Shown: positions 28,050-32,234 of the stretch, one piece after another
Layout of the letters: each line of letters starts with the position of its first letter
Numbering within the stretch: the stretch's first letter is position 1
From: Spizellomyces punctatus DAOM BR117
Lineage: Eukaryota
DNA length: 64,000 bases
Assembly (NCBI GenBank): GCA_000182565.2
Contig: KQ257450.1
Strand: one strand, 5' to 3'
The notes under the pieces: generated by a model
The model's input: only the letters and a program-made list of their open reading frames with translations
The model's database searches: none
Told to the model about the DNA's origin: nothing
Program-made: the position numbers and the translations under genes

Positions 28050-29335
28050 TCACTTCGAACCTCTGGATGAGGTTCTTGTGTAGGGCCCCTCCACAGCTCC
28101 GTCATCATATGCTGAATCTGCTCTTTTGTGCTTTACGTACGGTTCCCACTCGCCACTACCAGAACCGCCTTTCACTGTCACTAGCACATCTTTCAAACGA
28201 CCAGCTGACGTCGATGCTGCAGTTGGCAGGGAGGAGGGCGGCGTAAATGAAGCTAATTTGTACACCCGATAAGTCGTAGACTTTGACTTTTTCTCGCTAT
28301 GGTACGTGCTATCCACCCCGGTATTTTCTGCTGCTGAAGCCGCAGTTGGTAGGCTAGAGGCAGATACTTTGAACTCCCCATAAATTGTGCCGCCCCTCTT
28401 TTTCAAGGCCATCTCCCCCTGCTCCCTCATCTTCTGCCTCTCGCGCTCCATCTCTCGAGTTGCCTCCATTCTCCTTTGCGCACATCTCAGCTTTACAACA
28501 CTGGGAGGCCTCAGAGCTCCGGCGTCCCATTGTCTCTCCGATCGGCCTCGTTTCGGAAGAGGTGGCTTGAATAGTTTTGTATGAGAAGGCAGGAATGGTA
28601 GCGGCCGTGGAGATCTGATGAGATTCTTCATGTCGCATAGCCATGGCGGAAGACGAGGTCCTCGTGGACGCTTGGTAGGCGCTGGTACTAGGATAAAGTC
28701 GGGCAGAAAGCTCCTTGGAATGTGTTTGGACACGGAATTGTTTGGAATGGGATCAGATACGGCCAATAATACTGGCTGTAATTCGACAGGTTCAAGGGCG
28801 GTGTCCCTGTCCTCTTTCTCGGCCGGCGAGAGAGGAAAAAACACGGATCGTGATGCAAAGTCTGCTAATGATGGTGCAATAATGTGGTTTTTTGACATAA
28901 AGTCTATGGGGTCTTCAATAGATATCTGTAAACGAGAACGATGAAAAAAAAGGAATAAACGATGATATGAAGGGGGGGCCAAGTGAGGCGTCCGAACCTT
29001 TATAGGTTGCCGTTCAACATTTACGAAAACATTTTTCTTTTGACTAATTTCCCAATCAGCCTCCGCAATTTCATCGAGTGCTGCAGAGGAACACAAATAC
29101 ACACATTGCATACTTCTGGCAGCGACAAGAACGCCGTCGACCTTTCGCCTGTTCGGCTTCCGAACCTTTTCACTTTTTGGGCTTTTTGACTTCTACTTGT
29201 TTCTACATTTGCGTCTGTGTAGTCAAAAGCTTGATATCCACCATGGCTTGCATTGGGCCTACGGCGTAAGAAAACTGTGCCGTGTGGTAAAGTCACGGTG
29301 ACACCGCCAAAGATTTGGGGATGAAATGTCGCCAT
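28050..29335 (-). CDS. Hypothetical protein (multi-exon, basic/Pro-rich)
   Basis: ORF 29021-29335 with GTATGC donor at ~29113, followed by long ORF 28050-29111; divergent from LTP1; no family recognised. Confidence 0.55.
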
Positions 29336-30698: not shown

Positions 30699-32115
30699 AT
30701 GCCCATCTCAAGCCAAACTTCCCGCCCTGTCCCCTCCACAACGCTCTCCACAACGCCCCGGAGACGCTCGTTAACACCCTTCCCCGGCCTTCCACCTGTC
30801 AACGTCTTGGGGGCCGAAACGACGCGGAACGAGGTGGCACATCCAGACGTTGGGAATGTGACGGTGGTACTTGTCGGCAGTCGAGTTGGATCTTTGGTGA
30901 GTAATTACTTTCCTTGAATATTATTTATATTGGCGAACTGATATCGAAAATGCCGTTGTGGGTAGGAAAATATAACGTGGAAACCTCCAGGAGGTAAGAT
31001 ATCCAAATCAACCGAATTCCTGCATCTTTCCCGACCAAGATATTCAATGGGCAAACGGTAAAAATAACAGGAGACAAGAAAATCTTTCACCAACGACTGA
31101 ATTTCAAACAAAAGGCCAGCAGTCGGGTTGGGTCTTTGGAGGTGCGTACGAGTCTCCACAGTTTCAATACATCACTGGAGATCGGGCTGATGAAAGTTGG
31201 TGCTTGCTTTAGAATCTTTATTGGTCGGCACCAGGGTAAGGTTATGCATTGCGAATCCTTCTATCCCCAACTCAATGAATCCTCACCGTCCAAATCTTGC
31301 AAAGACATAAACAAAAAATCCCAACAAACGATCTAAGCTTCATCCAAAACGCTCGATCCAAAGTCGGCTCGCTGGATAATATTCATTATACCCCACGAGC
31401 CAGTCAAACTCTCAAGGGACGACAGAGATCTGCGAGTTTAGAATCAAAGAGTCGGGAAAAAGTTTTGTTTTATAGTCCATCTTTTGAGGTATCTCTACCA
31501 TGTTATCATGTTCGGGTAGATGAACATACTCATCATCCGCTTCCGCAACAGAGCCTTCCCCGCACACACACGCCGACTAAACCGATCAATAAAAACGTCC
31601 ACTCAAAGATTGGTAGCTTGGATAACATTCATCACAAGCCGGGCGGCGGGAAGGTCAAGATCATAAATGAAAAAATTCCGGTGGGAAAGTTCAAAAAGGT
31701 GGACTCCAGGGTTGGAAGTTTGGAGGTTAGGCCCCCTTTGACACCATTTTTTTTTACTTGCTTTATTGGCTTGAACGCTCACTGAGTCGTAGAATATTCG
31801 GCATGTGCCTGGTGGTGGAGATGTTCAGGTACGGCTGTGTTCCTGCTCTTCTGCATGCCACTCCTAACACTCTGTCCTGGGCACAAAACCTTTGAAATAT
31901 GACAGATCATCAACTTGCCTCTACATCTTCACCCTCAATCCAAAGTGGGGAGTCTCGATAACATCCACCACGAGCCTTTAGGTGGTCATGTAGTCATTGG
32001 TACGTGCAAAGCCAGCATATGAGTCGCGCAAAGCCGCAGTCTAATGCTGTCACCAGTGAACGAGCCCATCGTGTACAAGACAAAGGGGGAACTTGCTAGG
32101 GCTGCGCGCGGTTGA
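30699..32115 (+). CDS. Tau/MAP2/MAP4-like microtubule-binding repeat protein (8 exons, 6 repeats)
   Basis: Exons 30699-30896, 30966-30993, 31071-31141, 31213-31235, 31305-~31725 (probably containing one more in-frame intron ~31489-31551), 31793-31828, 31906-~31999 and 32057-32115 splice in frame through GT-AG introns. Repeats include [22 protein letters not shown] and [22 protein letters not shown]. Confidence 0.85.
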
Positions 32116-32234
32116 CGCTTGTGGCGAGCAAAGATATCGCTGTTTTCATGTCTGTCCATGCACGGCTACATTTCAAAACGTACTAAAGAACGAATCTGTT
32201 GTCTATGTGTAATTTACATAAATATGTGTAGAAA

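Follow-up and report, generated by a model that had tools for sequence, protein, structure and literature searches.

Could the microtubule-binding repeats of tau, their control by MARK kinases and even a propensity to form amyloid be older than animals? The question is raised by a gene in a 64,000-nucleotide stretch (the window) of contig KQ257450.1 of the chytrid Spizellomyces punctatus, in which an earlier note, made from the letters alone, had described a tau-like protein with KxGS phospho-switches and a hexapeptide resembling PHF6*. Here, we propose that the gene encodes a tau-type microtubule-associated protein, that its release by MARK is probable, and that the resemblance of its hexapeptide VQIINL to the tau motif is convergent, a combined reading that we hold to be likely.

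A tau-family gene in a chytrid

The gene occupies positions 30699-32115 on the plus strand, and its nine coding exons (Table 1) specify a 288-aa product identical to the database protein SPPG_00495 (P0001), which its sources label 'Microtubule-associated protein'. All eight introns are GT-AG and 57-77 nt long. The expression evidence consists of two RNA runs, X1 and X8, the latter sampled to about 6/100 of the run, with 599 reads placed, mainly at the 3' end of the gene. In X8, 10 reads with 8 different starts cross the joint of the intron at 32000-32056, and the intron at 31829-31905 is supported only by 8 loose read ends, in which the last part of the preceding exon is found (agreement 0.68). 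One X1 contig holds the joint of intron 31236-31304, which has an AAG acceptor, together with a loose end at intron 31142-31212. Introns 1, 2, 5 and 6 gave neither a joint nor a loose end in the reads of X1 and X8. Two other gene models were set aside: one with an acceptor at 31337, contradicted by the joint at 31304 in that one contig, and one retaining intron 5, passed over since the nine-exon model equals the database protein, the reads being compatible with either. Intron 5 (31489-31551; 63 nt) is open in frame, and its retention would add 21 residues; at this place the linker of SPPG_00495 is shorter than those of its orthologs.

The convergent neighbour is a GHMP-kinase (homoserine kinase-like) gene, whose 3' transcript ends overlap those of SPPG_00495 (32100-32300), where loose ends with poly-T fall at 32181 for one strand and the reads of the other strand reach to about 32275. 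On the minus strand, 28050-29192 holds a 380-aa open frame without a Pfam match.

Judged by its sequence, SPPG_00495 is a chytrid microtubule-associated protein of the Tau/MAP2/MAP4 family. Pfam PF00418 matches it in six stretches with 187 bits (curated cut-off 27), and the comparison with human tau gives an E value of 2e-39, residues 169-277 aligning with tau 241-347; the claim of a tau-like protein outside animals therefore holds. Its six (K/R)xGS repeats form two blocks of three with spacings of 32/32/61/34/30, the second block being the part first described, and six cores exceed chance (shuffled sequences had a mean of 0.36 KxGS, and 87/20000 had three or more). The core had been said to occur in every repeat, and it does, in six repeats rather than three, the additional ones having their cores at 30882, 31124 and 31360. 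All the cores reported for 31590-32075 are likewise present, their true order being KIGS, RVGS, KVGS and not the one first given. The repeat ends read, in order, PPGG, APGH, none, PGGG, PGGG and PLGG, with the core present in 6/6. The chain is basic (pI 10.4; 42 K+R versus 20 D+E). AlphaFold returned a pLDDT of 37, with 282/288 residues below 50 and a short end helix alone, which fits but does not prove disorder because the underlying alignment held 9 sequences only.

Table 1. Coding exons, repeat cores and hexapeptides of SPPG_00495 (window positions)
Feature	Position	Strand	Remark
Coding exons 1-5	30699-30896, 30966-30993, 31071-31141, 31213-31235, 31305-31488	+	
Coding exons 6-9	31552-31725, 31793-31828, 31906-31999, 32057-32115	+	
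Repeat 1 core RVGS (Ser65)	30882..30893	+	outside the part first described
Repeat 2 core RVGS (Ser97)	31124..31135	+	outside the part first described
Repeat 3 core KVGS (Ser129)	31360..31371	+	without PGGG; then a basic Ser/Pro linker of about 45 aa
Repeat 4 core KIGS (Ser190)	31606..31617	+	aligned with tau R1 KIGS (Ser262)
Repeat 5 core RVGS (Ser224)	31708..31719	+	from the gene model
Repeat 6 core KVGS (Ser254)	31942..31953	+	from the gene model
Hexapeptide VKIINE	31654..31671	+	contiguous; PHF6* slot; two charged residues
Hexapeptide VQIINL	31823-31828 + 31906-31917	+	split by intron 31829-31905; PHF6 slot; Pro next
Hexapeptide VVIVNE	31990-31999 + 32057-32064	+	split by intron 32000-32056; Pro next

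A phase-0 intron lies at the identical place (GSLE/N) in repeats 2 and 5 (31142 and 31726), whereas in repeat 1 it falls one codon earlier. The same GSLE/N intron occurs in one repeat of a second paralog of 172 aa, on contig C16 of the same genome (L001, at about 1382-1470). As this position is common to repeats 2 and 5 and to the paralog's repeat, the gene structure suggests that tau-type repeats were duplicated together with their intron.

How widespread is the family? That it is older than animals was already in print through a Rhizopus delemar homolog in Sundermann et al. 2016, where KxGS is given as the core motif by which microtubules are bound (PMC4815063); a later preprint scored MAP2/Tau across eukaryotes, with one chytrid among its species (10.1101/2024.01.08.573270). 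MAPT itself arose in vertebrates, and SPPG_00495 departs from vertebrate tau in having no Cys and in spacings unlike the 31 of R2/R3. The named fungal relatives come from chytrids, Glomeromycota and Mucoromycota. No name from the Dikarya occurred among the 76 matches of one search or the best 120 of 2185 of another, and when the family was sought below fungi and animals, the named sequences among 30 representatives were animals or fungi. We found no paper on the chytrid six-repeat subfamily, and no literature on tau in chytrids or on a link between MARK and tau in fungi, in a search that had most subscription journals outside its reach. SPPG_00495 is an unstudied yet annotated member of a family already known to be present in fungi. 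One predicted chytrid protein (P0208, Irineochytrium annulatum, 663 aa) has tau and ankyrin repeats in the same chain and may be either a true fusion or a merged gene model.

The KxGS cores as probable tubulin contacts and candidate MARK sites

What might this protein do with its six cores? Extrapolating from tau, the disordered basic chain would run along protofilaments, its repeats arranged in two blocks of three and each SKxGS core bonding to helix 12 of alpha-tubulin, and microtubules would be stabilised or bundled as a result. That the chytrid protein binds the microtubule lattice is, by this analogy, very probable. In a tau-microtubule ensemble, E434 of alpha-tubulin accepts hydrogen bonds from S262 and the corresponding serines of the other repeats, and the Lys at -3, the Asn at +3 and the His at +6 likewise touch tubulin (PMC8704032). 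Residues 362-436 of S. punctatus alpha-tubulin are identical to those of a mammalian chain, E434 included, and because the contact of the serines is kept in this way, the steric basis of a phospho-switch is present.

The core is nearly invariant. When repeats were scored in 55 hand-labelled proteins out of 339, with a profile that ignored the four core columns, was seeded from KxGS-bearing repeats and recovered 5/6 of the SPPG_00495 repeats, [KR]xGS was found in 278 of the 289 scored repeats: 45/47 in the chytrid orthologs, 9/9 in short chytrid proteins, 50/52 in Glomeromycota/Mucoromycota, 118/125 in invertebrates and 56/56 in tetrapod tau. Since KxGS is both a universal core and a tubulin contact, its presence alone cannot indicate phospho-control; binding by itself would be sufficient to explain the conservation, and KxGS would have been retained first of all as a binding contact.

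Might the motif then be purely structural, the serines binding tubulin without any regulated switch? Any control would in that case depend on expression or on proline-directed and basophilic sites in the linker and the N-terminal part, and outside its repeats SPPG_00495 does carry a series of RxxS sites along with two of the form [ST]P-x-[KR]. The same account is favoured by the tubulin contacts of the tau serine and of the Lys, Asn and His around it, residues for which binding alone would account. We rate it as possible rather than probable in view of the kinase complement. The S. punctatus genome has eight KA1-domain matches (L014-L021) with kinase exons upstream of each, and one of them (L015, P0340) combines kinase, UBA and KA1 domains by Pfam and is named CAMK/CAMKL/MARK by its source. 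The best PDB matches of its kinase exons are MARK1-4, ahead of SIK3, AMPK and Snf1, with 165 + 160 bits on MARK3 versus 148 + 136 on SIK3 and 99 + 95 on yeast Snf1; the assignment to MARK is one by search scores, domains and identity. Over the kinase domain it shares 69-75% identity with six MARK-family matches from Holozoa, and it keeps the GGE, KAEN and PFDG-NL segments, a likeness by which it should recognise the same sites and which speaks against a purely structural role.

Because the genome encodes this animal-type MARK, a MARK-type switch is plausible in this fungus. In tau and MAP2, KXGS is the motif at which MARK acts (PMC2604893; PMC6468450), and the SPPG_00495 sites have K/R at -3, N at +3 and I/L at +4 in 6/6 repeats, as around tau S262. 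In the mechanism that we propose, the animal-type MARK would phosphorylate the KxGS serines and would probably thereby release the protein from the lattice, as in animals; we lean towards such a release taking place inside the cell. The idea of a pre-animal MARK-tau module gains plausibility from the kinase, whereas KxGS, from which it had been deduced, is in itself no sign of phospho-control.

The distribution of the kinase bears on this step. Among the best 120 of 7999 matches of a MARK search we counted by hand 60 fungal, aphelid or rozellid names, all belonging to zoosporic lineages or their kin. None of the 60 came from Glomeromycota, Mucoromycota or Dikarya, in a set of matches that reached as far as animal ones. 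That Glomeromycota and Mucoromycota keep KxGS with no MARK among the matches listed weakens the kinase step and favours a structural role, but because it concerns the best 120 of 7999 matches only, the absence is a lead and not a result, and other kinases could act in those fungi. MARK was possibly lost along with the flagellum.

Which kinase would act in S. punctatus? The earlier note had pointed to Kin1. The yeast Kin1/Kin2 consensus, as cited, has Asn at -2, a primed +2 and Ile/Leu at +4 (10.1101/2025.02.20.639281), whereas the KxGS sites have Val/Ile at -2, Asp/Glu at +2 and Ile/Leu at +4, each at 6/6. Since the Asn at -2 is missing from all six sites, Kin1 is probably the wrong kinase, and we set it aside on the cited consensus in favour of the animal-type MARK, which fits better. 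The Kin1-like locus L020, which we take to be Kin1, has GGQ in place of the GGE of MARK, at a residue that would read the -3 basic side chain. Phosphorylation by a Kin1-type or other KA1 kinase instead of the MARK ortholog is an unlikely alternative by reason of that residue and of the Val/Ile at -2, for all that the genome has eight KA1 kinases to choose from, that each site offers Ile/Leu at +4 together with an acid at +2, the position that yeast Kin1/2 require to be primed by a phosphate, and that L014 scores almost equally on SIK3 and MARK1.

MARK-like, SIK-like and Kin1-like KA1 kinases are found side by side in this one chytrid genome (L014-L021). L014 (G000:C7:537500-542500), with 352 bits on human SIK3 versus 345 on MARK1, has a C-terminal KA1, a domain that one account lists for MARK and not for SIK (PMC2604893); the locus may be informative on the split between SIK and MARK.

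The hexapeptides and the amyloid question

VKIINE, VQIINL and VVIVNE do follow PGGG, PGGG and PLGG, as had been reported, with the qualification that only VKIINE is contiguous in the DNA and the other two exist after splicing. In the phmmer register against human tau, VKIINE corresponds to VQIINK (PHF6*), VQIINL to VQIVYK (PHF6) and VVIVNE to VEVKSE. The description of VQIINL as PHF6*-like is thus right in composition, with a 5/6 match to VQIINK, and wrong in position, as it sits in the PHF6 slot instead. By hydropathy and charge, VQIINL and VVIVNE are hydrophobic at positions 1, 3 and 4 without an internal charge, and VKIINE is not. Alanine scans of VQIVYK found positions 1, 3 and 4 to be needed and 2 and 6 to be dispensable (PMC9935906), so that free VQIINL likely aggregates; by analogy with those peptides, we would expect the isolated hexapeptide to form fibrils with good probability.

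Was the motif inherited from an ancestor shared with tau? In its strongest form, this alternative has the animal-fungal ancestor already equipped with the MARK switch and with a VQI-x-x-x-P hexapeptide prone to aggregate. It can draw on the register, in which the three chytrid hexapeptides match, one after the other, the starts of tau R2, R3 and R4, and on the scans just cited, by which V1, I3 and position 4 are the required ones and position 6 tolerates Ala. In the nine orthologs, the slot reads VQIINL, VQIIDV (4), VQIVDV, VQITDV, VMIVDV and VQILDQ; VQI is kept in 8/9, and the Pro that follows in 9/9, as in tau R3, is a point against an independent origin. Position 5 tells the other way, being Asp in 8/9 and Asn in S. 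punctatus only, and the conservation of an amyloid-type motif across orthologs fails there. At the VKIINE slot 7/8 of the other orthologs start with KK or KR and one with SR, and at the VVIVNE slot 8/9 have V-x-I-V.

The wider survey also speaks against common ancestry. A V-x-I-[IV] start is found in 20/47 ortholog repeats, 15 of the 20 with a charge in positions 1-5, and in 28/56 tetrapod tau repeats, none of them charged there, but in only 3/186 of the other non-vertebrate repeats; VQI[IV] starts 0/61 other fungal and 0/125 invertebrate repeats. Look-alikes one change away from VQIINK make up 4/233 non-vertebrate hexapeptides; of these four, the two invertebrate ones are from a nematode and a snail. 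The Pro at +7 occurs in 25/47 chytrid ortholog repeats and is rare elsewhere outside vertebrates.

The repeat that contains VQIINL is also unlike its tau counterparts, with a 30-residue spacing and no Cys against 31 and a Cys in tau R2/R3; Cys was present in the core of 0/31 chytrid ortholog units, and repeat types of 30 and 32 residues are common to chytrids and invertebrates. In favour of a shared origin, tau R3 (59.0) came close to the best class (62.8) when the unit was scored against repeat classes. A repeat tree built without the hexapeptide places the unit among chytrid repeats, weakly, and is only suggestive because it has 25 columns and 88/146 inner branches are open; the vertebrate tau/MAP2/MAP4 labels of some of its rows were assigned from motifs. 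On the other side, an AU test (25 columns, 91/155 rows) failed to reject a clade joining the chytrid unit with tau R3 (p 0.378), as a common origin would have it.

The vertebrate paralogs speak to the same point. According to one study, Y310 and P312 are specific to tau as against MAP2 and jointly switch on aggregation in MAP2c, while MAP2, 90% similar in the repeats, has no polymer found in vivo (PMC6468450); with MAP2 unpolymerised at such similarity, a look-alike hexapeptide predicts little. MAP2 and MAP4 have neither the Tyr at position 5 nor the following Pro, and as MAP4 branches first within the vertebrate MAP4/MAP2/MAPT group (PMC4815063), Tyr5 and Pro are best read as tau novelties. 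A gatekeeper function for the following Pro, protecting VQIINL from aggregation, was considered and dropped, since P312 is reported to favour aggregation in tau (PMC6468450).

On this evidence, the likeness of VQIINL to the tau motif is likely a convergence. The chytrid subfamily would have drifted to V-x-I-[IV] hexapeptides, usually with a charged residue, and in S. punctatus, with an Asn where its relatives carry Asp, the resemblance to PHF6* would have arisen independently. Descent of both switch and hexapeptide from the animal-fungal ancestor seems to us very unlikely, and we give as little credit to a shared origin with tau of the amyloid motif taken singly. Equally improbable is a version in which the whole tau package is pre-animal and its hexapeptide start was masked by charge in most lineages and unmasked in this chytrid and in tau; the fibrils of tau type that the fungal protein, once released, would form under that joint reading are hardly to be expected. 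An amyloid that is conserved or functional in the chytrid is unlikely, and the ancient amyloid propensity that had been suggested is not borne out by the single Asn5 among nine orthologs and the scarcity of V-x-I-[IV] elsewhere.

Meaning and comparison with known systems

If the chytrid MARK does release SPPG_00495, the tau-MARK switch would date to the animal-fungal ancestor and would be open to study in a single-celled, neuron-free, flagellate organism, where its original role, such as lattice stability in zoospore building or encystment, would be directly addressable. In addition, the nine orthologs vary naturally between Asn and Asp at one position of the hexapeptide, which may help to explain how repeat MAPs stay soluble. 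What we add is a tau-like MAP paired with an animal-type MARK rather than with Kin1, for which we found no study (most subscription journals being outside the search).

Compared with the R1-R4 region of vertebrate tau (MAPT), SPPG_00495 has the same SK(I/V)GS-LDNI-H-PGGG cores in a basic chain with no predicted fold, and V-x-I hexapeptides after PGGG. It differs in having six repeats in two linker-split blocks, no long acidic projection domain, its own spacings as opposed to 31/31/32 in tau, cores without Cys, and hexapeptides that end in E or L where those of tau end in K, lysines that contact tubulin (PMC8704032). With the other non-vertebrate MAP2/MAP4/tau-like proteins, such as that of Rhizopus delemar, it forms one repeat family that is the outgroup to vertebrate MAP4/MAP2/MAPT, homologs for which 'tau' has been called a misnomer (PMC4815063); the chytrid six-repeat subfamily stands apart from them by its richness in V-x-I-[IV] and in Pro at +7.

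As in the control of tau, MAP2 and MAP4 by MARK/PAR-1, the site pattern is present in all six repeats and a kinase-UBA-KA1 MARK is encoded in the genome; unlike in animals, the chytrid MARK-MAP pair is deduced from co-occurrence, and our literature searches returned no report of phosphorylation or release of such a MAP in any fungus. Lastly, VQIINL resembles PHF6* in five of its six residues and PHF6 in the Pro that comes next, with V1, I3 and a hydrophobic position 4 kept, and it differs in varying among its orthologs, in having no Tyr5 and in the Asp that stands directly before it in the chain.
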